32,000 nucleotides of DNA, from positions 2,850,001 through 2,882,000 of the forward strand of contig NZ_LN831024.1 in the NCBI RefSeq assembly GCF_001457615.1, written 5' to 3'. Position numbers and translations under genes: made by a program. Position 1 is the first letter of the stretch, and each line of letters opens with the position of its first letter. Shown in pieces: positions 12,450 through 22,188 of the stretch. The stretch is from Pseudomonas aeruginosa. Lineage in GTDB: Bacteria > Pseudomonadota > Gammaproteobacteria > Pseudomonadales > Pseudomonadaceae. The notes under the pieces were generated by a model. It saw nothing but the letters and a program-made list of their open reading frames with translations. It had not been told where the DNA came from and did no database searches.

Positions 12450-12986
12450 CTAGGGCTCCGCCAGCCTGGTCCACCACCAGCGCCAGCGCGCCATGGGCCT
12501 GCCCTCGCTGTCCAGCGGCCGGCCGTCATCGGCGAACGGCTGGGCGCCGTCCAGTAGCTGGCCGTTCAGGTAGCGTCCGTCGAAGGCCAGTTGGCCATTG
12601 CCATGGAAGCGCTGGTAGACCCCGTCGCGCACGCCGTCGCGGTAATGCTCGCGCTCGGCCACCTGGCCGTTGGCGAAATAGTTGAACGCTTCGCCGTGGA
12701 GCAGCCCGTTGCGGTAGTGCGCCTTGCGCTGCAACCAGCCTTCCGCGGCATGGAAACTCGCCGGCCCGTGCAGCTTGCCGTCGACGAAGGCGAGTTGCGC
12801 GGAGACCTTGCCGTTGGGATGGAACAGGGTGCTGGCGCCGTGCAACTGGCCCTGCCGGTAGCCGAGGCTGGCCTGCGGCCTGTCGTGCTCGTCGATGCGC
12901 AACGGGCCTTCCAGGCTGCCGTCGAGCAGGTTGCCGGCGAGATGGCTGTCGCCACGAACCAGGTCGAGCTTGCCGGATGCCGCCAT
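12450..12986 (-). CDS. tseF: MORN-repeat T6SS effector TseF-like protein (178 aa)
   Basis: There are 4-5 tandem repeats of about 23 aa of the form YxxGxxHGxxxxxxxNG (MORN-type). GAGGAG SD lies upstream. It sits 10 nt downstream of vgrG3 on the same strand, matching the position of PA2374/TseF in the H3-T6SS locus. Confidence 0.85.
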   Translation of the reverse strand: MAASGKLDLVRGDSHLAGNLLDGSLEGPLRIDEHDRPQASLGYRQGQLHGASTLFHPNGKVSAQLAFVDGKLHGPASFHAAEGWLQRKAHYRNGLLHGEAFNYFANGQVAEREHYRDGVRDGVYQRFHGNGQLAFDGRYLNGQLLDGAQPFADDGRPLDSEGRPMARWRWWWTRLAEP

Positions 12987-12996
12987 GCGCTTCTCC

Positions 12997-15003
12997 TCAG
13001 TTGACCTTTACCAGGCCGCCCTTGATGGTCAGCATGCCGCCGCCGTCCACCGTCTGTTCGGCGCCGGCCTTGTTGGTCAGGCTGACGCCGGCATCGTTGG
13101 TCAGGCTGGTGCCGGCCTTGTTGGTGAGGGAGGTGCCGGCCTGGTTGGTCAGCGACGTCCCGGCCTTGCTGGTCAGCGAGGTGCCAGCCTGGGCGGCGAG
13201 GTCGGCGTCGCTCTTCAGGGTCAGGCTGCCGCCGCTCTGCAGGGCGAGGGTGCCGCTGACCTTGATGGTCAGGTTGCCGTCCACCGTCAGCTCGAAGTTG
13301 CCGCTGACCTTGTGGCTGTAGTTGCCGCCGGTGCTGTGGGTCTGGTCGGCGCCCACCGTCACCGTGCGCGTGTCCTTCACATCCAGGCTGTCGCTGCCGG
13401 TCTGGATGGTCACCGTGCGCTTGCCTTTCTCCAGGGTGACGGTCTCGTCGCCTTCCTTCACCGTGCGGGTGCGTGCGTTCTGCACCGTCAGGGTCTCGTC
13501 GTGGCCGATGCTGGCGGTGCTGTCGTTGAGCACGTTGACGTTGAGGTCCTTCTGCGCCTGGAGGAAGACCTCCTCGGCGTCCTTCTTGTCCTCGAAGCGC
13601 AGCTCGTTGAAACCGCCGCCGCCCTTCGACGAGTTGGTCTTGATCCCGGACTGCGTCTGGTTGTCCGGCAGCGCGTAGGGCAGGGCGTTGTCGCCGTTGT
13701 AGACGCAGCCGGTGACCAGCGGGCGGTCCGGGTCGCCGTCGATGAAGGTGACGATCACTTCCTGGCCGATGCGCGGCACGAACTGCATGCCGAAGCCCTT
13801 GCCGCTCCAGGGCAGCACCACGCGCACCCAGCACGACGAGGTCTCGTCGTTCTTGCCGTCGCGGTCCCAGGGGAACTGGAGCTTGATCCGGCCGTACTGG
13901 TCGGTCCAGATCTCCTCGCCGGCCTTGCCCACCACCAGGGCGGTCTGGGTGTGCATGCGCGGCTTGGGCGTGACCCGCGCGGGGCGGTAGGCGGTGGCCT
14001 TGGGGATCGCCTCGAAGCGGTTGCGGTAGTGCGCGTGACTGGCGTCATGGGTGACCGAGGTCAGCACCCAGTCGATATTCAGCGAATCGTCGTCATGCCC
14101 GCTGAGGGTGAACCAGTGGCCGGGCACCAGCCAGCGGCAGTCGCTCTCGCCGATCAGGCGCGTCTCCTGGCTGCGCAGGCCGTCGATGCGTTGCTTGGTC
14201 AGGCTGTCGCCCTGGGCCTTGGCGGTGTAGCCGCCGGGGTGCTGGTAGACGCCGGCGGCGCCGGAAACCGCCTCGGCCTGGGAGTACAGCGAGGTGCCCG
14301 GGGTGGTGAACTCGTAGTCGGTGGCGCTGTAGGTCCCGGATACCGCCTGGAGGCTGTACTGCGCCGAACGCACGCCCTGCAACTCGCGCACGCCGATTCC
14401 TTGGCCCAGGTAGGCCACTTGCGGGCCGTTGGGAATCGGCGGGAAGGCGTCGTTGCTGTCGGCCAGCACCAGGGTGTGCTTGCCGGCGGCATGGGTGAAG
14501 AACCAGAAGATGCCGTCTTCCTCCAGCAGCCGCGAGACGAAGGCGAGGTCGCTCTCGCCGTACTGCACGCAGTATTCGCGGGGCTGGTAGCTGCCGCTGA
14601 GCTGCAACTGGTAGTCGCTGAAGCCGTGCTGGTCGAAGACCTGGGTGACGATGTCGCTGGTGGCCAGGTTCTGGAACACCCGGTTGTTGCTGGCCAGCGT
14701 CAGCCACCAGAGCCAGGGGCGCAACAGCACCTGGTAGCGCTCGGCGCTGGCATCGCCGGGGAGTTGGCGGATCTCCGCGACCAGGCCGTCGAGCGGACGC
14801 TGGTCGGCGTCGTTGTGCAGGGTGGCGGTGAGATGGGTGGCCACCGCATTGCTCAACGTCAGCGCGGTGGCGCTGTAGCCGCCGAGCGTCAGGCTGCCCA
14901 GCTCGTTCAACGCCTCGCCCCCGGAAAGCGTCTGGGGGTAAAGATCACCCAGGGTGGAGGCGCTGAGGGAGAGGGTGGTATTGGTGTCGGTGGGACGGGG
15001 CAT
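12997..15003 (-). CDS. vgrG3: VgrG spike protein, non-evolved (no C-terminal effector domain), 668 aa
   Basis: gp27-like and gp5-like regions are present (...VRVVLPWSGKGFGMQFVPRIGQEVIVTFIDGDPDRPLVTGCVYNG...). The C-terminal beta-helix repeat region ends ...MLTIKGGLVKVN. Confidence 0.95.
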   Translation of the reverse strand: MPRPTDTNTTLSLSASTLGDLYPQTLSGGEALNELGSLTLGGYSATALTLSNAVATHLTATLHNDADQRPLDGLVAEIRQLPGDASAERYQVLLRPWLWWLTLASNNRVFQNLATSDIVTQVFDQHGFSDYQLQLSGSYQPREYCVQYGESDLAFVSRLLEEDGIFWFFTHAAGKHTLVLADSNDAFPPIPNGPQVAYLGQGIGVRELQGVRSAQYSLQAVSGTYSATDYEFTTPGTSLYSQAEAVSGAAGVYQHPGGYTAKAQGDSLTKQRIDGLRSQETRLIGESDCRWLVPGHWFTLSGHDDDSLNIDWVLTSVTHDASHAHYRNRFEAIPKATAYRPARVTPKPRMHTQTALVVGKAGEEIWTDQYGRIKLQFPWDRDGKNDETSSCWVRVVLPWSGKGFGMQFVPRIGQEVIVTFIDGDPDRPLVTGCVYNGDNALPYALPDNQTQSGIKTNSSKGGGGFNELRFEDKKDAEEVFLQAQKDLNVNVLNDSTASIGHDETLTVQNARTRTVKEGDETVTLEKGKRTVTIQTGSDSLDVKDTRTVTVGADQTHSTGGNYSHKVSGNFELTVDGNLTIKVSGTLALQSGGSLTLKSDADLAAQAGTSLTSKAGTSLTNQAGTSLTNKAGTSLTNDAGVSLTNKAGAEQTVDGGGMLTIKGGLVKVN
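13069..13188 (-). repeat. Five tandem 24-bp repeats encoding the octapeptide AGTSLT(N/S)x within the VgrG3 C-terminal beta-helix
   Basis: Protein residues 606-645 read AGTSLTSK AGTSLTNQ AGTSLTNK AGTSLTND AGVSLTNK. The DNA shows the corresponding periodic GGTCAG...GCCGGC units. Confidence 0.85.
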
Positions 15004-15191
15004 TAGTGTGCCTTGTCATGCCAGCCCGAAGGAATGATGAATAACCTCAAGACGACCTTCATCCCGATTTTTCCATCCACGTATAGATCACCGGAAAATG
15101 ATCGCTCCTCATCGGTTGGCCAAGTATTGTCGAGGAACTCCAGCTTTTCCCAAAAGGCCATCGAATGAGTGGATGTGGATTGGTTGTCCAT
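15003..15191 (-). CDS. Candidate small ORF (62 aa) stop/start-coupled to vgrG3; possibly the distal part of a frameshifted gene
   Basis: Its TAA stop overlaps the vgrG3 ATG (TAATG, 15001-15005). It has the low GC of the island. The SD is weak. A second ORF (15059..15250, another frame) overlaps it. Confidence 0.3.
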   Translation of the reverse strand: MDNQSTSTHSMAFWEKLEFLDNTWPTDEERSFSGDLYVDGKIGMKVVLRLFIIPSGWHDKAH

Positions 15192-15350
15192 GTGCTGTAC
15201 GTTCCAGACCAGAATTTCAGCGCCATAATGGTGACTTGGTCAGAGTTCATAAAGGGGGATGGAGGAGGCTTATTTTGTGGTTATGAAGTGTCAAAAAATA
15301 GATATCCCATTACTCGTTTCCTTTTTATTTGAGATGGCGCTAAATTATTC

Positions 15351-15923
15351 TTAAGGTACTCTCTGTCTTGCTTCCGAAGCTCGAAATCTTGGCGTTAGCA
15401 CTACATTGCCTTGCGCATCAAAGAGTACCCCGTCTTTATGGTAATTGCCGTCGGCAAATTCTTTCGGTACCGACACCGATGAATTATAGTAATATACATC
15501 TATATTGGGGTAGCCCATGCTGTCTCGCATTTTGCTTTTGAATGAAGTAGCAAATTCCGAAAACTCACCCCCTGAGTTACATACGTAGAGCTTGACTCTT
15601 CTATGGTTTGCATTTAATCCTGCTACTTTCAGTCTTACTGACAGTTCCCCTGCCGTTAACGCCGGTATGAGCCCGTTCGCAGGAGGGGTGCTCAGGCTGA
15701 ATATGTAGTCTGAGATGCCTTCGTAACCATGAGCAATCACGTACAGCGTATCGTCATTGTTTATGATATTTAATGGCTTCATGTGCTTAGTGTTGTAAAA
15801 TAATAGCTTCGGTGGTTCTCTGCCGCGAGGATCCTTTGCCACTTGGGATGCCCAAAGCGTACCCATGGATAGTAGTTCGTTATTGCTTTCTTCGCTTGTG
15901 AATGGCACGAATAAATAGTTCAT
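15351..15923 (-). CDS. Low-GC orphan protein (190 aa, PA2372-like) with an ordered His/Cys motif pair; candidate clan-CD-like cysteine peptidase domain
   Basis: GAGGAG SD lies 7 nt upstream, and the start is 21 nt downstream of the clpV3 stop. There is no signal peptide. Motifs are LYVIAHGYEG (His65, codon 15729-15731) and VKLYVCNSGG (Cys115, codon 15579-15581). Codon usage is AT-rich, unlike the neighbours. Confidence 0.75.
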   Translation of the reverse strand: MNYLFVPFTSEESNNELLSMGTLWASQVAKDPRGREPPKLLFYNTKHMKPLNIINNDDTLYVIAHGYEGISDYIFSLSTPPANGLIPALTAGELSVRLKVAGLNANHRRVKLYVCNSGGEFSEFATSFKSKMRDSMGYPNIDVYYYNSSVSVPKEFADGNYHKDGVLFDAQGNVVLTPRFRASEARQRVP

Positions 15924-15944
15924 ATAGACTCCTCAAATAGGGTC

Positions 15945-18494
15945 CTACTCCAACACCCACTCCGCCAACTTCCCCGTCACCTGCGCCATCAGCACGTTCT
16001 CGATATCCCGCGCGCCCGCCGCGCTGCACTTGGCGAGCACGGCCTTGACGATGGCCGGGTCGAAGTCGAACTGTTTGCCGGTAGCGGCCTTGTAGCGTTC
16101 CCGCAGTTTTTCCAGCTTGGCCACGACGATGCCTTCCAGGGTGGCTTCCTCCAGCGGCCGGTAAGGCACCACGGTCATGCGCGCGAGGAACGCCGGGCGG
16201 AAGGTTTGCAGCAGGACTTTGCGCAGGCGCTCGTCGAAGGCCGGGGTGGCGACCTGTTCGGCCGGGCTGTCCAGCAGCAGTTCGGCGCCGACGTTGCTGG
16301 TGGCGAGGATCACGGTGTTCCTGAAGTCCACCACCAGGCCGGTGCCGTCTTCCATCACGCCCTTGTCGAACACGTTGTAGAAGGCTTCCAGCACGTCCGG
16401 ATGGGCTTTCTCGATCTCGTCCAGCAGCACCACCGAATAGGGCTTGCGGCGCACCGCTTCGGTGAGCACGCCACCGCTGCCGTAGCCGACGTAGCCGGGC
16501 GGGGCGCCCTTGAGCTGGCTGACGGTGTGGGCCTCCTGGTACTCGGAGAGGTTGATGCTGATCAGGTTGCGTTCGCCGCCGTAAAGGGCGTCGGCCAGGG
16601 CGTAGGCGGTCTCGGTCTTGCCCACGCCGGTGGGGCCGGGCAGGAGGAATACGCCGACCGGCTTGGCCGGGTCGCTGAGTCCGGCGCGATAGGCCTGGAT
16701 GCGCTGGGCGATGGCGCCCAGGGCGGCCTCCTGGCCCATCACCCGCTGGCCCATTCGTTGCGCCAGGGAACGGATGGCGTGGGCTTCGTCGGCGAGCATC
16801 TTGCCCACCGGGATGCCGGTCCAGCCGGCGATCACCGCGGCCACGGTACGCGAGTCCACCTGCTCGGGAACCAGCGGGTCGTCCTGGCGGATGGCTTCGA
16901 GGCCGGCCGCCAGGCGCGCCAGTTCGGCGGCCAGGTGGTCGATGCGACCGTCCAGTTCCTCGTCGGGCTTGGCCGCGTCGGCGCTTTCGCTGAGGGCCAG
17001 CAGTTCGCGGCGGATGTCGAGCAGTTCGCGCACCGCTTCGCGTTCCTCGTCCCAGCGGGTCTCCAGCTCGCGGATGGTCCGGCGGTTATCGCCCGACTCG
17101 CTTTCCAGGGCGGTGATACGCGCGCTGTGGTCGAGGCCGGTGGCCTGTTCCCGGCGCAGCCGCTGCAATTCCTCTTCCAGCGCCTGCTCGCGATGGCGCA
17201 GGCTTTCCAGCGGCGGCGGCACGTCGTGCTGGCCGAGGGCGACCCGCGCGCAGGCGGTGTCGAGCACGCTGATCGCCTTGTCCGGCAACTGGCGGCCGGA
17301 GATGTAGCGATGCGACAGCTTCACCGCATCGACGATGGCCGCGTCCATGATCTGCACGCCGTGATGCAGTTCCAGCTTGCCGGCGACGCCGCGCAGCATC
17401 TCCACGGCGGTGGCCTCGTCCGGCTCCTCGACCTGGACCAGCTGGAAGCGCCGGGTCAGCGCCGGGTCCTTCTCGAAGTATTTCTTGTATTCCAGCCAGG
17501 TGGTGGCCGCCAGGGTGCGCAACTCGCCGCGCGCCAGGGCCGGCTTGAGCAGGTTGGCGGCGTCGCTGCCGCCTTCCGCGCCGCCGGCGCCGATCAGCGT
17601 GTGCGCCTCGTCGATGAACAGGATGATCGGCTGCGCGCTGTTGCGCACGGCGTCGATCACGCCCTTGAGGCGCTGCTCGAACTCGCCCTTCATGCTGGCG
17701 CCGGCCTGCAACAGGCCGAGGTCGAGCACCCGCAGGATCACCTCCTGCAACGACGGCGGCACCTCGCCGGCGGCGATGCGCAGGGCCAGGCCCTCGACCA
17801 CCGCGGTCTTGCCGACGCCCGGCGCGCCGACCAGGATCGGGTTGTTCTGCCGCCGGCGCAGGAGGATGTCGACGCACTGGCGGATCTCCCCGTCGCGCCC
17901 GACTATGGGGTCGATGCGCCCGGCGCGGGCTTCGGCGGTGAGGTCCTGGGTGTACTGGTCGAGCAGCGGGTCCGGGGCGCTTTCCGGCTTGTCGCCGCCT
18001 GCCGCCGGGCGGTTCGGCGCGGGCGGCTGTTCGCGGGAGGCCTGGATCCACTCCAGCAGGTTGGCCTGCAAGGCCTCGTGGGGAATCCGCAGCAGCGACG
18101 ACGCGCTGTTCAGCAACAGGGCGCGGCGCTCCTCGCGGTCGAGCAGGGCGAGCAGCAGCAGGCCGGAACGGATCTGCGCCTGGCCGAGCACGCTGGCGTG
18201 GACCACGGCGTCCTCGAGCAGGCCGATGGTGTGCGCGGACAGCGCCGGAGTGCGGGTATTGCCGGCCTTGAACAGCTCCAGCGACAGGTTGATCTCGGCG
18301 ACCAGGGCGTCGCGCTCCAGGCCGAAGCGCGGCAGCAGGCAGGCGAAGTCGCCGCCGTCGATGTCCAGCAGCTCCAGCAGCAGGTGCTCGATCTCTACGT
18401 AATGATGGGTGCGTTGCAGGCAGCGTTGCGCGGCGCGCTCCAGGGAGCGGCGACAGTCCGGGTTGAGGCGGCCGATCAGGGCGGCGAGTTCCAT
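15945..18494 (-). CDS. clpV3: ClpV AAA+ ATPase (TssH), 849 aa
   Basis: There are two AAA+ modules with Walker A motifs GAPGVGKTAVVEGLA and GPTGVGKTETAYALA. The N-domain and overall ClpB-like architecture are present. It starts 1 nt after the tssG3 stop. Confidence 0.97.
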   Translation of the reverse strand: MELAALIGRLNPDCRRSLERAAQRCLQRTHHYVEIEHLLLELLDIDGGDFACLLPRFGLERDALVAEINLSLELFKAGNTRTPALSAHTIGLLEDAVVHASVLGQAQIRSGLLLLALLDREERRALLLNSASSLLRIPHEALQANLLEWIQASREQPPAPNRPAAGGDKPESAPDPLLDQYTQDLTAEARAGRIDPIVGRDGEIRQCVDILLRRRQNNPILVGAPGVGKTAVVEGLALRIAAGEVPPSLQEVILRVLDLGLLQAGASMKGEFEQRLKGVIDAVRNSAQPIILFIDEAHTLIGAGGAEGGSDAANLLKPALARGELRTLAATTWLEYKKYFEKDPALTRRFQLVQVEEPDEATAVEMLRGVAGKLELHHGVQIMDAAIVDAVKLSHRYISGRQLPDKAISVLDTACARVALGQHDVPPPLESLRHREQALEEELQRLRREQATGLDHSARITALESESGDNRRTIRELETRWDEEREAVRELLDIRRELLALSESADAAKPDEELDGRIDHLAAELARLAAGLEAIRQDDPLVPEQVDSRTVAAVIAGWTGIPVGKMLADEAHAIRSLAQRMGQRVMGQEAALGAIAQRIQAYRAGLSDPAKPVGVFLLPGPTGVGKTETAYALADALYGGERNLISINLSEYQEAHTVSQLKGAPPGYVGYGSGGVLTEAVRRKPYSVVLLDEIEKAHPDVLEAFYNVFDKGVMEDGTGLVVDFRNTVILATSNVGAELLLDSPAEQVATPAFDERLRKVLLQTFRPAFLARMTVVPYRPLEEATLEGIVVAKLEKLRERYKAATGKQFDFDPAIVKAVLAKCSAAGARDIENVLMAQVTGKLAEWVLE

Positions 18495-18495
18495 T

Positions 18496-19512
18496 TCAGG
18501 CTACCTCCGGCTGCCGCAGGTCAAGATCGATGCGCTGCCGCTGGCCGTCTTCGACGCGCCGCAGGCCGGTGTTCCAGCTCAGCCTGGGCGGTGCACCGCG
18601 CTCCAGGCGCAGCGGCGCGCCGCCGCTCACCAGCAGGCTCAGGCGACAATCCAGGTCGGGGCCGAAGTACAGCGCGGCGAGGCTGGCCAACTGGCCATGG
18701 GCGTCGCCGTCGGGGAAGAAGCGGGCGGCTTCGCGGGCATCCAGCGGACCGAGACTGAGGGCGATGCCGGCGTGCTCGTCCCAGGTGCGCGTGCCGGCTA
18801 TGGCGTCGCGACCCAGGCGCAGGTTGCGTCCGCCGCGTTGCAGCCGGCTGCGGCTGGCCGCGGGGATTTCCTTCCAGGCGCCCTGGTAGGCGTCCAGCCG
18901 TGCCTCCACGCCGAAGTGCTGGCGCACCAGGCCGGCGAAGCCGGCCAGGGAGCGACGCCCGCCGGCGAACAGCGCGGTGCGTGCCAGCACCGCGCTGTCC
19001 GGCAGCGCCAGGCGCTCTTGCAGGGCTTTCGGCAACAGGCCGCTGAGGGCGCGTAGCTGCGCCTGCACCGGGGTCGCCGCCGGCACCGCGAAACCGAGCG
19101 CCACGCGATGCTTGCGCAGTACCCGGTAGAGCAGGCTGAGCAGGCGGTGCTGGAACAGGTCGAGGAACTCGGCGGGGGCATGGTCCTTCTGCCGGGCACG
19201 CTGTTGCAGCCATTCCTGGTAGGCATAGGGCAACGGGCCGTCGGGGCCGCCGAGGCCGAACACCGGGGTGGACAGCACCGGTTGCTGCGGGTCGTCGAGC
19301 AGGCTTTCCACCTCGCTCGAGGCGAACAGCGGCAACAGCGGCCCGCGCAGGCGCAGGGCCTCCGCCCGCGGCGCGTTGCCGGTGCCCAGCGGCAACGCCT
19401 GGGGACGCTCGCGTTCGAGCAGCAGCAGCGCCTGCAACAGTTCGAAGCGCTGCGGCGTGCGGCGCAGCCGCTGACTCAGAGGGAGAGCGGCGAGCCGGCC
19501 TGGGGTTGCCAT
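18496..19512 (-). CDS. tssG3: T6SS baseplate protein TssG (338 aa)
   Basis: The ATG at 19512 is preceded by AAGGAGG at 6-nt spacing. The N-terminus MATPGRLAALPLSQRLRRTPQRFELLQALLLLE fits TssG. The longer 504-aa track ORF would overlap tssF3 by about 500 nt and is Arg/Pro-rich. Confidence 0.85.
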   Translation of the reverse strand: MATPGRLAALPLSQRLRRTPQRFELLQALLLLERERPQALPLGTGNAPRAEALRLRGPLLPLFASSEVESLLDDPQQPVLSTPVFGLGGPDGPLPYAYQEWLQQRARQKDHAPAEFLDLFQHRLLSLLYRVLRKHRVALGFAVPAATPVQAQLRALSGLLPKALQERLALPDSAVLARTALFAGGRRSLAGFAGLVRQHFGVEARLDAYQGAWKEIPAASRSRLQRGGRNLRLGRDAIAGTRTWDEHAGIALSLGPLDAREAARFFPDGDAHGQLASLAALYFGPDLDCRLSLLVSGGAPLRLERGAPPRLSWNTGLRRVEDGQRQRIDLDLRQPEVA

Positions 19513-21269
19513 GTCTTCACCTCCTTGTCGGCTTCCACCAGGACCGTGCGCACGAAGCGGTTGGCGGTGGCATACAGCGAGAAGAACTGCGCCAGCACGG
19601 CGGAGAACAGCACGCCGCTGGCGCCGACGAAGTGCTGCGGATCGAGTCGCAGGCGGATTTCCAGGCCATTGCGCCAGCCGCGCCAGGCATCCTCGCCGAC
19701 GTGCGCCACCACCCGCTGGCAGTCGAGTTGCCTCAGCCCTTCTATCTGCCGGCGGGCGCTGGCGTCGTCGCGCAGGTTGTGCAGGGCGAGGATTTCCCGC
19801 AGGGCTTCGAGGGCGCGCGGGCCTTCCACCAGCGAGAGGTGGTTGAGGGTCAGCTGCGAGACCAGTCTCCAGCGCGACTGGCCGTCCAGGCGCGGCTGGC
19901 TCTGCGCGCTGGGCGCGTTGCGCAGGCGTGCGGCGGCGACCGGCCCGGGCCGTTCGAAGCCCAGCGCGGTGCCGGCACCCAGGCGCTCGGCCAGATAGCG
20001 ATTGGTGCATAGCAGCTCGGCGGTCAGGCTGAAGGCCGGGGCTTCGCGTAACGGGTCGAAGCCGGTATCCACCAGGCTCAGCAGCAGGTCGCTGCCCAGC
20101 CGGTTCGGGGTCAGCCCGGCGATGCGCCGGGCGTGCCAGTAGAGCGTGCCGAGGTGGCTGTCGTGGCGGCAGCCATAGTAGGCCGGGACTGGCTGCACGG
20201 TGCTCCCGGCAACCGAGCGCACGGCGCGGATGCTATGGATTTCCACGCTGTTCTCGCGGTGACTGTCGGCGACCAGGCGGTACTCGCTGCGGGTGCCGTC
20301 CGGGCGCAGCGGCTCCGAGGTCCGCGGAAAGAGGTTGATCGCCGGCGCGCAGCCGAGCTGGAAGTCTTCCGCCTGCAAATGCAGGCGTGCCGTCGGTGCG
20401 CGATCGAAGACCAGGTACAGGTAGAGCGTCTGTCCGTCGGCGAGCGCGCCGGACAGTGGCAGGTCGAAGAAGTGGAACTTGTCGGGGAAGGCGAAGTACT
20501 CGGCGAGCAGGCGCAGGCCCGGATGTCCGCCGTCTTCCTCCGGCAGCAGCGCCTCGTCGGCGGCGAAGCCGACGATCTCCGGCAGTCCGCGGAGCGCCGC
20601 CGGCGGCGTGCCGGGCGCCCCCGCCATGACCTGCACGGTATGCGCGGCGAGCAGGTCGTAGAGGATCGCGCAGCCCATCGGCGAAGCCGCCAGGTGGATG
20701 CGCAGGCGCTCGATCGACAGTTCGTCCCAGCGGTACTCGCCCAGGCAGCGCAGGCTCAGGCGCAACGCCGAGCGGGCGGCGACGACTCCGGTCAGGGCTT
20801 GCGCCTCCTCGCCGCCGAGGAGGTTCGCCTCGTCGATCGCCAGCGGCCACAGGGTCGCCTCGGCGCTGCTGCGGAAATGCACGCTGTCGCCGCCACGGGT
20901 GGTGACGAACAGCGCGGTGTCGCGCGGCAGCCGGTAGCCCTCGGCGAGGCTGCCCTGGGTCGGGTCCGGTTCGAACTGGACGATCGCGCAGGACGGCAGC
21001 GGGCGCAGCGCCAGGGGGTAGAGCTGTTCGAGGAGGGCGTCGCTGAACTCTGCGTAGTCGTCGTCGAGGCGCCGTTGCAGGCGCGCGGTGAGCAGCGAGA
21101 AGCCTTCCAGCAGACGCTCGACGTGCGGGTCGGGGCATTCGCCGGGGGCCAGTTGCAGGCGCCGGGCGACCTTCGGATAGCGCTCGGCGAAGGCGCCGCC
21201 GGCATGCCGCAGCCAGGTCAGCTCGCGCTGGTAGTAGTCGAGCAGGTCGGCATCAATCGAATCGCTCAT
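19476..21269 (-). CDS. tssF3: T6SS baseplate protein TssF (about 597 aa)
   Basis: The sequence MSDSIDADLLDYYQRELTWLRHAGGAFAERYPKVARRL is a typical TssF N-terminus. The ATG at 21269 has GAGG 6 nt upstream. An alternative ATG at 21287 would add 6 aa. Confidence 0.9.
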   Translation of the reverse strand: MSDSIDADLLDYYQRELTWLRHAGGAFAERYPKVARRLQLAPGECPDPHVERLLEGFSLLTARLQRRLDDDYAEFSDALLEQLYPLALRPLPSCAIVQFEPDPTQGSLAEGYRLPRDTALFVTTRGGDSVHFRSSAEATLWPLAIDEANLLGGEEAQALTGVVAARSALRLSLRCLGEYRWDELSIERLRIHLAASPMGCAILYDLLAAHTVQVMAGAPGTPPAALRGLPEIVGFAADEALLPEEDGGHPGLRLLAEYFAFPDKFHFFDLPLSGALADGQTLYLYLVFDRAPTARLHLQAEDFQLGCAPAINLFPRTSEPLRPDGTRSEYRLVADSHRENSVEIHSIRAVRSVAGSTVQPVPAYYGCRHDSHLGTLYWHARRIAGLTPNRLGSDLLLSLVDTGFDPLREAPAFSLTAELLCTNRYLAERLGAGTALGFERPGPVAAARLRNAPSAQSQPRLDGQSRWRLVSQLTLNHLSLVEGPRALEALREILALHNLRDDASARRQIEGLRQLDCQRVVAHVGEDAWRGWRNGLEIRLRLDPQHFVGASGVLFSAVLAQFFSLYATANRFVRTVLVEADKEVKTWQPQAGSPLSL

Positions 21270-21678
21270 GGCGCACCTCGAGGCCATCGCTGCCCTGTTC
21301 GATGACGAATAGCGCAGGCATCAGGCGCGACCCGCTGCGCAGGCGGCCACCGAGCTGGATACGCAGGCGCTGCGGATTGCCCGGGTCAGGTTCGACCTCG
21401 ACCTCGGCCAGTTGCAGGCGCGGCTCGAAATGCTCGACCGCCGCCCGCACCTCGCGCGCCAGCTGGCGCCGGTCCTCGGCGCGCAGGCGTTGCACGGCGG
21501 TCCAGTCGGCGAGCCCGTAGGCGAGGATGCCGCTGCGCGCATTCGCCGGGCGCCGTGTGTTGAGCAGGCGCAGCAGCTCGCCGCGGACCGACTCGGCCAG
21601 CGCCCGGTCGTCGAACGCGGGACGTTCGTCGGCCTCGGCGCTGAGGCGCTCGAACAGCGGCGGCAGGGCTCCGGACAT
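21253..21678 (-). CDS. tssE3: T6SS baseplate protein TssE (gp25-like lysozyme-fold protein), 141 aa
   Basis: PLFERLS...ESVRGELLRLLNTRRP...YGLADW... is a gp25/GPW family pattern. It sits between hcp and tssF. Confidence 0.9.
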   Translation of the reverse strand: MSGALPPLFERLSAEADERPAFDDRALAESVRGELLRLLNTRRPANARSGILAYGLADWTAVQRLRAEDRRQLAREVRAAVEHFEPRLQLAEVEVEPDPGNPQRLRIQLGGRLRSGSRLMPALFVIEQGSDGLEVRHERFD

Positions 21679-21690
21679 GTCGGCGCCCGG

Positions 21691-22188
21691 TCACTTGACC
21701 AGCTGGTTGGCGGCCAGGTCCCAGGTCGAGGCGGCCGTGCCTTCCTTGGTGCCGTCGTCCTTCTGCGCGGTCAGCTCCCACTTGATCTTGGTGAAGTTCA
21801 GCGACAGGGTCTCCACCGGCTTGCCGCCGGCGCCGCCGCTGACGCTGACGTTGGAGAGCACCACGTTGTTCAGGGTGTAGACGATGAAGGGCATGATCTG
21901 CCCGTTGCCCTCGGCGGCGTTGCGGCCGATGGTGATGGTCGCCTCGGCGATCGGCTTGCCGGCGCAGCAATACTCGTTGAGGGTCGGGGTCGAGGTGTCG
22001 ATGAACTTGGTGAGGGTGAATTCGCCGACGTGGGGTTTGCCGGAGGTGCGCTCCGAGTTGCTGACGTCGTTGGTGACCTGCATCGCCACGTTGTGGCTGT
22101 AGGACATGATTTCGATCTTGTTTTCGTAGCCGACGAGCAGGCTGTCGCCTTTGATGTCGCTGCCGAAATCGAGAATGATCGCATCCAT
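21691..22188 (-). CDS. hcp3: Hcp tube protein, 165 aa
   Basis: MDAIILDFGSDIKGDS...IEIMSYSHNV...GEFTLTKFIDTSTPTL...LNFTKIKWEL is Hcp-family sequence. Confidence 0.95.
   Translation of the reverse strand: MDAIILDFGSDIKGDSLLVGYENKIEIMSYSHNVAMQVTNDVSNSERTSGKPHVGEFTLTKFIDTSTPTLNEYCCAGKPIAEATITIGRNAAEGNGQIMPFIVYTLNNVVLSNVSVSGGAGGKPVETLSLNFTKIKWELTAQKDDGTKEGTAASTWDLAANQLVK

Follow-up and report, generated by a model that had tools for sequence, protein, structure and literature searches.

The low-GC gene between clpV3 and vgrG3 of Pseudomonas aeruginosa is PA2372/Tce2, a probable Hcp3-carried effector with a predicted C80/OspB-like protease fold

Few effectors of the H3-type type VI secretion system (H3-T6SS) are known, and the role of the system in infection is debated. 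Here we describe an open reading frame (ORF) that lies among the genes of this system in a stretch of 32,000 nucleotides of the Pseudomonas aeruginosa genome (contig NZ_LN831024.1, positions 2,850,001 to 2,882,000), referred to as the window, whose numbering is used throughout. The ORF is PA2372, already published under the name Tce2, and the feature is therefore correct but not new. We consider its product a probable effector directed against eukaryotic cells, and discuss its fold, its relatives, the way in which it could be activated and the variable genomic slot in which it is found.

The clpV3-vgrG3 interval

The genes of the secretion system form a run on the minus strand, in the order hcp3, an ORF in the position of tssE, tssF, tssG, clpV3, tce2, vgrG3 and a gene in the position of tseF (Table 1). 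The stop codon of clpV3 (15945-15947) and the ATG of tce2 (15921-15923) delimit a gap of 21 nt. The composition of tce2 sets it apart from its surroundings, with a GC content of 0.447 and a GC3 of 0.46, versus a GC content of 0.678 for the whole window and a GC3 of 0.92 for clpV3. In the encoded protein, His65 lies within the motif LYVIAHGYEG and Cys115 within VKLYVCNSGG, 50 residues further on. The N-terminus, MNYLFVPF, forms the core strand beta-1 of the structural model presented below (pLDDT 97); that it is no signal peptide was assessed by visual inspection only.

An initial annotation, made from the nucleotide sequence, had described a low-GC ORF of 190 aa with a Shine-Dalgarno sequence, the same short gap after clpV3 and the same two residues at the same spacing, all of which stands, the minus strand having been left unstated. 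It also expected co-expression with clpV3. The interval 14800-16200 yielded no sigma-70-like promoter, which is consistent with the co-transcription of tce2 with clpV3, and the three terminator-like sites present in the same interval are about the number expected by chance.

Table 1. Features of the tce2 locus, in window coordinates
Feature	Position	Strand	Description and basis
tce2 (PA2372) CDS	15351-15923	minus	ORF, ATG start, 190 aa, 21.3 kDa; predicted C80/OspB-like cysteine protease fold
His65 codon (CAT)	15729-15731	minus	Predicted catalytic histidine, end of strand 59-67
Cys115 codon (TGT)	15579-15581	minus	Predicted catalytic nucleophile, directly after strand 109-114
clpV3-tce2 spacer, 21 nt	15924-15944	minus	Holds Shine-Dalgarno sequence GAGGAG (15929-15934), 5 nt ahead of the ATG
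clpV3, 849 aa, immediately upstream	15945-18494	minus	Pfam Clp_N, AAA, AAA_lid_9, AAA_2, ClpB_D2-small
vgrG3, 668 aa, immediately downstream	12997-15003	minus	Pfam Phage_GPD, Phage_base_V, Gp5_trimer_C
MORN_2 protein, tseF position	12450-12986	minus	Pfam
hcp3, 165 aa, tube protein reported as carrier of Tce2	21691-22188	minus	ORF; 165-aa T6SS_HCP gene at the same place in syntenic loci
141-aa ORF, tssE position	21253-21678	minus	Named by position and Pfam labels of syntenic loci
tssF	19476-21287	minus	Named by position and Pfam labels of syntenic loci
tssG	between tssF and clpV3	minus	Named by position and Pfam labels of syntenic loci
Low-GC (~0.44) swappable cassette holding tce2	15017-15954	minus	blastn breakpoints against a PA14-type contig; composition
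Spacer, 347 bp, with probable relic of a deleted endonuclease/exonuclease/phosphatase (EEP)-like gene	15004-15350	minus	tblastn

Published work on PA2372

The qPCR primers reported for PA2372 (PMC13015528) have exact matches in the ORF, at 15825-15844 and 15655-15674, and the gene of the window is the same as PA2372 of strain PAO1, with agreement in length (190 aa), position and the numbering of His65 and Cys115. An identical protein is encoded on at least 1000 P. aeruginosa contigs, under the label hypothetical in every case.

PA2372 was recovered in an in vivo pulldown as one of nine significant Hcp3-specific interactors, with a 5.8-fold enrichment (mBio 2021; PMC8262886). The name Tce2 and the His65/Cys115 dyad were introduced in Nature Microbiology in May 2026, where the protein is presented as an antifungal effector carried by Hcp3 (PMC13323088). 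According to this paper, Tce2 is toxic in yeast and the C115S substitution abolishes this toxicity, its expression in Escherichia coli is not toxic, assembly of the H3 sheath is intact in a tce2 deletion, and secretion of Tce2 could not be measured (PMC13323088). Binding to Hcp3 is reported in both works (PMC8262886, PMC13323088), the location of Tce2 inside the Hcp3 ring's lumen being an AlphaFold3 prediction (PMC13323088). Furthermore, His65 is reported to superpose on the catalytic histidine of TcdB, and the two residues of the dyad to be close in space (PMC13323088). A second Hcp3 cargo described there, Tce1 (PA0256), has a His186/Cys240 dyad and was seen by cryo-EM at 3.8 A enclosed by two Hcp3 rings (PMC13323088).

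In the light of these works, the gene cannot be called undescribed, as the initial annotation had it, nor is an association with VgrG3 borne out, as co-purification and the modelled position inside the ring tie the protein to Hcp3. Its view of an effector rather than a structural component has found support in the behaviour of the C115S variant in yeast and of the tce2 deletion strain. With Tce2, the H3-T6SS has a toxin whose action on a eukaryotic cell depends on Cys115, a point that is already published.

A clan CD fold closest to C80 domains

An AlphaFold2 model of Tce2 was built from an alignment of 32 sequences (pLDDT 91.2, pTM 0.88) and replaced an unusable one obtained from the single sequence (pLDDT 41). 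In this model each residue of the dyad follows on a beta-strand (59-67 and 109-114, respectively), and a helix (91-100, ELSVRLKVAG) lies between them. When the model was compared with the Protein Data Bank (PDB) using Foldseek, nine of the ten matches at E<=1e-3 were chains of C80 cysteine protease domains (CPDs). The top six belong to TcdB and to the MARTX toxins (E 3.8e-5 to 1.4e-4, TM up to 0.54); the C80 matches comprise TcdB 9bja (E 3.8e-5) and the Vibrio cholerae RTX CPD (3gcd/3fzy/3eeb, TM ~0.5), and further V. vulnificus MARTX 8yjc and TcdA 3ho6. Lower matches correspond to other members of clan CD, namely SAVED-CHAT, CED-3, GPI8 (7wld), caspase-8, a C11 peptidase and VyPAL2 (7f5p), and below E ~0.02 all matches belong to the clan, apart from large multi-domain entries. 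The model therefore predicts a caspase-like alpha/beta fold of clan CD, in which the histidine precedes the cysteine as is the order in this clan, both being placed after a strand and both conserved in the alignments, and for which C80 domains are the closest solved structures.

Tce2 itself gave no match to PF11713 (Peptidase_C80) at E<=1 in a Pfam scan, staying below the curated threshold of the family, which is matched by two of its 32 close relatives (best E 0.0039) and by 13 of the 137 relatives of a wider alignment (best E 8.3e-7). The Tce2 sequence retrieved nothing useful from Pfam, NCBIfam or PDB, and DUF4625 (E 0.038), the only direct-sequence match, was taken as a chance result. Profile searches of PDB with the 32- and the 137-sequence alignments did not find any CPD, and the matches to Pizza6 (E 1.8) and DsrE (E 0.14) that they produced were rejected. 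Moreover, the autoprocessing that goes with C80 domains has no counterpart here, as Tce2 is a free-standing protein of 190 aa with no toxin domains attached.

Relatives of Tce2 and homology with OspB

An exhaustive profile search identified 711 related proteins at E<=1e-3, versus 15 in a first, word-indexed search. Across 32 relatives, with identities down to 20%, neither His65 nor Cys115 varies, which exceeds what chance would give. In the wider set of 137 aligned relatives (19-58% identity; alignment A4), to which the conservation counts given in this text refer, Cys115 is kept in 136 sequences and His65 in 127. Aspartate takes the place of His65 in eight of them (P0066, P0078, P0086, P0112, P0143, P0151, P0154, P0164); the proteins of this subgroup are longer (330-436 aa), display the motif ADG and keep the cysteine, and they may have a variant active site.

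Some of the relatives are fused to Ank, DrrA_P4M or DnaJ domains and several come from Legionella, which points to eukaryotic targets. The comparison by hhalign of the Tce2 family (A4) with OspB of Shigella (plasmid pCP301) resulted in a probability of 96.6% and an E-value of 5e-10, with His65 paired to H144 and Cys115 to C184 of OspB. Both OspB residues are experimentally required, the enzyme needs inositol hexakisphosphate (InsP6), and it cleaves Tco89p (PMC9239218). As judged from the alignments, the closest characterised family is that of OspB and VPA1380, and as judged from the model it is C80.

The genomic location of the relatives is diverse. Homologues of Microbulbifer (L003:8001-8558) and of an alphaproteobacterial metagenome-assembled genome (MAG; L020:8001-8558), 52-58% identical to Tce2, have no T6SS gene within 8 kb, and the family is consequently not strictly linked to the T6SS. 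A more distant relative (25% identity, L021:8001-9227) is encoded ~2 kb from another T6SS cluster, next to a 185-aa gene of the Peptidase_C58 family (YopT-like, E 1.8e-6).

Altogether, the proposal that the protein is a clan CD, C80/CPD-like enzyme has held, on the basis of the CPDs at the top of the Foldseek results, the alignment with the OspB dyad and the conservation of both residues (127 and 136 of 137), and the strands and the intervening helix that had been proposed from the sequence are seen in the model. Among the checks that were suggested along with it, conservation and structural comparison, with C80 CPDs ranked first, came out in its favour; the Pfam profile failed on Tce2 itself and succeeded on 13 relatives.

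A given fold and dyad do not dictate a single chemistry. Tce2 could be a transpeptidase or "peptide-bond recombinase", or catalyse some other acyl transfer by which a host protein would be rewired: OspB is now claimed to be a peptide-bond recombinase, transamidases and ligases figure among the clan CD matches (GPI8, 7wld; the peptide asparaginyl ligase VyPAL2, 7f5p), and the passages on Tce2 in the published account show no cleavage product (PMC13323088). Against this stand the best structural matches, which are hydrolytic, autoprocessing CPDs, and the fact that OspB does cleave Tco89p, while the Tce2 sequence itself holds nothing to separate hydrolysis from transpeptidation. We regard a chemistry of this kind as unlikely, and hydrolysis of a peptide bond would be the activity of Tce2.

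A putative InsP6 pocket

A dependence on InsP6 is common to OspB, VPA1380 and the toxin CPDs (PMC9239218, PMC4123922). In VPA1380, the residues K148, Y150, R191, Y253, R271 and R283 of a putative InsP6 pocket were tested by mutation, and mutation of the last five reduced or abolished toxicity in yeast (PMC4123922). These positions were transferred from VPA1380 to OspB by applying constant offsets relative to the catalytic residues, and from OspB to Tce2 by profile alignment. They correspond to K138, Y140, R180, Y242, R260 and K273/R274 in OspB, and to T59, Y61, K111, Y146, K163 and R181 in Tce2, the mappings of K163 and R181 falling in a low-confidence part of the profile alignment. In the Tce2 family, five of these six positions belong to the non-catalytic sites that are most conserved: Y61 is kept in 132 relatives and Y146 in 136, and a lysine or arginine is found in 121 of them at position 111, in 119 at 163 and in 107 at 181.

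These correspondences tip the balance slightly towards a gating of Tce2 by InsP6, a cofactor that the initial annotation had already suggested. Such gating would explain both the absence of an immunity gene and the harmlessness of the protein in E. coli, and the published contrast between yeast, where Tce2 is toxic, and E. coli, where it is not, fits with activation by InsP6. Neither inositol nor InsP6 is mentioned in the paper on Tce2 (PMC13323088), and the idea has now become concrete and cheap to test.

An exchangeable cassette in the H3-T6SS locus

A tce2-type gene occupies the clpV3-vgrG3 interval not only of P. aeruginosa but also of P. kribbensis, M. otitidis and one metagenome contig. 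The close homologues of Tce2 have everywhere a lower GC content than their hosts (0.39-0.47 versus 0.50-0.67). With its 21.3 kDa, and in the same minus-strand run as hcp3, Tce2 has the features of a cargo of the Hcp lumen.

The comparison by blastn of the window with a PA14-type contig (L024) delimits the exchanged segment. The two are 99.8% identical as far as position 15955, which lies close to the clpV3 stop codon, and similarity resumes at 15016, with 85% over the first ~440 nt of vgrG3 (14577-15016); the N-terminus of VgrG3 may co-vary with the cassette. In the PA14-type slot (L024:464-2103), found by means of a published tepB primer, lie PA14_33980 (177 aa), whose CxE...PCxxC motif is deaminase-like, and TepB (355 aa), which matches Peptidase_M91 (NleD-like zinc protease, E 2.6e-9). 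The GC content of these two genes is 0.61-0.63, versus 0.45 for tce2. They had been noted earlier, PA14_33980 as tsd2 and TepB as Tpe2 (PMC9846239, PMC10442045), and TepB (PA14_33970) is reported to bind VgrG3 (PMC10442045). The text of the latter paper calls PA14_33990 "VgrG3"; its own deletion primers, as mapped here (window 14180-14199), put tepB ~40 nt upstream of the vgrG3 start, from which the order in PA14 is clpV3 (33990), 33980, tepB (33970) and vgrG3 (33960).

A third P. aeruginosa allele (L017:3250-4980) carries two genes, one of 291 aa and an EEP-like one of 261 aa. The slot has thus at least three alternative contents in this species, and the breakpoints coincide with the clpV3 stop codon on one side and lie immediately ahead of the vgrG3 start on the other. 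In P. kribbensis it holds the Tce2 homologue, a 176-aa ORF and a 304-aa EEP-like gene, and in M. otitidis Tce2 and a 209-aa protein (L008:6685-7314) with a CAEP...PCLVC motif typical of deaminase toxins, for which no Pfam match was found. The 176-aa ORF of P. kribbensis (L001:8662-9189, L002:1341-1871) is labelled PF27349 IcsB_M in a precomputed table and is not called in the complete genome; our own Pfam scan, with no match at E<=1, did not reproduce this label. In some P. aeruginosa strains Tce2 is truncated to 140 aa (P0009, on 26 contigs; L005-L007:6001-6423). In one of these loci (L005) the gene calls for clpV3 and vgrG3 are fragmentary as well, an indication that the H3 cluster is decaying in some lineages. 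That tce2 is one allele of a swappable cassette is of importance when H3-T6SS phenotypes of PAO1 and PA14 are compared.

This variability bears on the other role offered by the initial annotation, that of an accessory or processing enzyme of the T6SS which would mature or release VgrG3, TseF or other cargo and would not be injected as a toxin. Tce2 is indeed co-encoded with clpV3 and vgrG3 at tight spacing, the C80 domains of large toxins are autoprocessing modules (PMC4123922), and in the published passages on Tce2 its secretion is nowhere observed (PMC13323088). Nevertheless, such a role is very improbable because unrelated cassettes replace tce2 in other P. aeruginosa strains, the surrounding genes clpV3, vgrG3 and tseF being the same in the PA14-type and third-type ones. 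It is also at odds with the 140-aa truncated form, with the orphan homologues away from T6SS genes, with the unchanged sheath assembly in the tce2 deletion, and with the Cys115-dependent toxicity in yeast of Tce2 alone, which binds Hcp3 like known lumen cargo (PMC13323088).

The spacer and its EEP relic

The spacer downstream of tce2 keeps traces of a gene of the type found in P. kribbensis. With the 304-aa EEP-like protein of this species (L001:9409-10323) as tblastn query, two pieces were detected in different frames: an N-terminal one at 15129-15215 (~28 first codons; IMIWNTQHFDN... vs ILVWNVQHMDN..., E 4e-4) and a C-terminal one at 15080-15136 (~19 last codons; ...IRSDHFPVLFT vs ...MRSDHFPVIYT, E 2e-3). 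The intact P. kribbensis protein has a weak Exo_endo_phos match (E 0.015). It is not a simple orthologue of the 261-aa EEP-like protein of the third allele, with which it shows no pairwise similarity. TepB was also considered as the intact form of the relic and was rejected, as primers and sequence show it to be a different protein, of the M91 family.

The same region contains an ORF of 62 aa (15003-15191), which many P. aeruginosa assemblies annotate as a gene and for which no Pfam or NCBIfam match was found. We examined it as an immunity gene and rejected it, since it overlaps the two out-of-frame EEP fragments; it is probably part of the relic left by the deletion of an EEP gene. The majority of T6SS effectors act on bacteria and have an immunity gene after them. 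That Tce2 would be such a toxin, with the 62-aa ORF as its immunity gene, is the least credible of the alternatives: the ORF does follow tce2 and is widely called, but Tce2 is not toxic in E. coli (PMC13323088), the ORF overlaps the two out-of-frame EEP-like fragments and has no family match, it is absent downstream of the homologues of P. kribbensis, M. otitidis, Microbulbifer and the MAG, and the relatives of Tce2 carry eukaryote-directed domains.

Proposed role

The explanation that accounts for these observations, and that we hold to be probably right as a whole, is that Tce2 is a horizontally acquired accessory effector of the H3-T6SS, a C80/OspB-like protease carried by Hcp3 and activated by the host. 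tce2 would be translated from the operon transcript of clpV3, and its product, which binds Hcp3, would be packed in the Hcp3 ring's lumen and be fired into a eukaryotic cell. There it would act as a cysteine protease of clan CD, C80/OspB-like, in which Cys115 would serve as the nucleophile and His65 as the general base, and it would be switched on by InsP6, a molecule of the host only, bound in a pocket likely formed by Tyr61, Lys111, Tyr146, Lys163 and Arg181. The fold, the conservation of the dyad, the homology with OspB, the binding to Hcp3 and the Cys115-dependent toxicity in yeast are the established parts of this account, whereas delivery by the H3-T6SS, gating by InsP6 and the hydrolysis of peptide bonds are inferred.

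A broader conception, to which we give even chances, would join this InsP6-gated Tce2 to an OspB-like superfamily of more than 700 stand-alone proteases, recruited by type III secretion systems (T3SS; OspB, VPA1380), probably by Dot/Icm of Legionella, where members are fused to Ank and DrrA_P4M, and by the T6SS, with at least three interchangeable and plausibly anti-eukaryote payloads at the slot (tce2; tsd2 and tepB; the 291-aa gene and the 261-aa EEP-like gene). If this were true, the H3-T6SS would be a strain-variable injector directed against eukaryotes.

The value of the present analysis resides in the testable InsP6 prediction, in how large and far-reaching the OspB-like family is, and in the observations on the cassette and the relic. 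Family size, allelic cassette and EEP relic find no mention in the passages on Tce2 of the published paper (PMC13323088), and the match to the InsP6 pocket, together with the swappable cassette and its relic, may go beyond the published accounts of Tce2.

Comparison with known systems

The C80 CPDs of the MARTX toxins and of TcdA/TcdB are the best structural matches of Tce2 and share with it the succession of histidine and cysteine, each at the end of a strand and with a helix between them. Unlike them, Tce2 has no toxin to autoprocess and remains below the PF11713 score, and the TM values are only ~0.4-0.5.

The T3SS effectors OspB and VPA1380 are, like Tce2, small and stand-alone proteins and not autoprocessing modules, and they exert their toxicity in yeast through the catalytic cysteine. 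OspB differs in its delivery, by a T3SS and not by a T6SS inside Hcp, and in its N-terminal extension of ~75 residues (288 vs 190 aa), and its identity with Tce2 over the aligned columns is ~20%.

Within P. aeruginosa, Tce1 reportedly shares its fold and dyad with Tce2 and is equally a cargo of Hcp3, whereas it is a protein of 310 aa that has an N-terminal extension, its gene lies far away from the H3 cluster and it shows no toxicity in yeast (PMC13323088). Finally, TepB/Tpe2 and PA14_33980 occupy the same clpV3-vgrG3 slot, are likewise thought to be directed against eukaryotes and also lack an immunity gene, but as proteins they are unrelated to Tce2.
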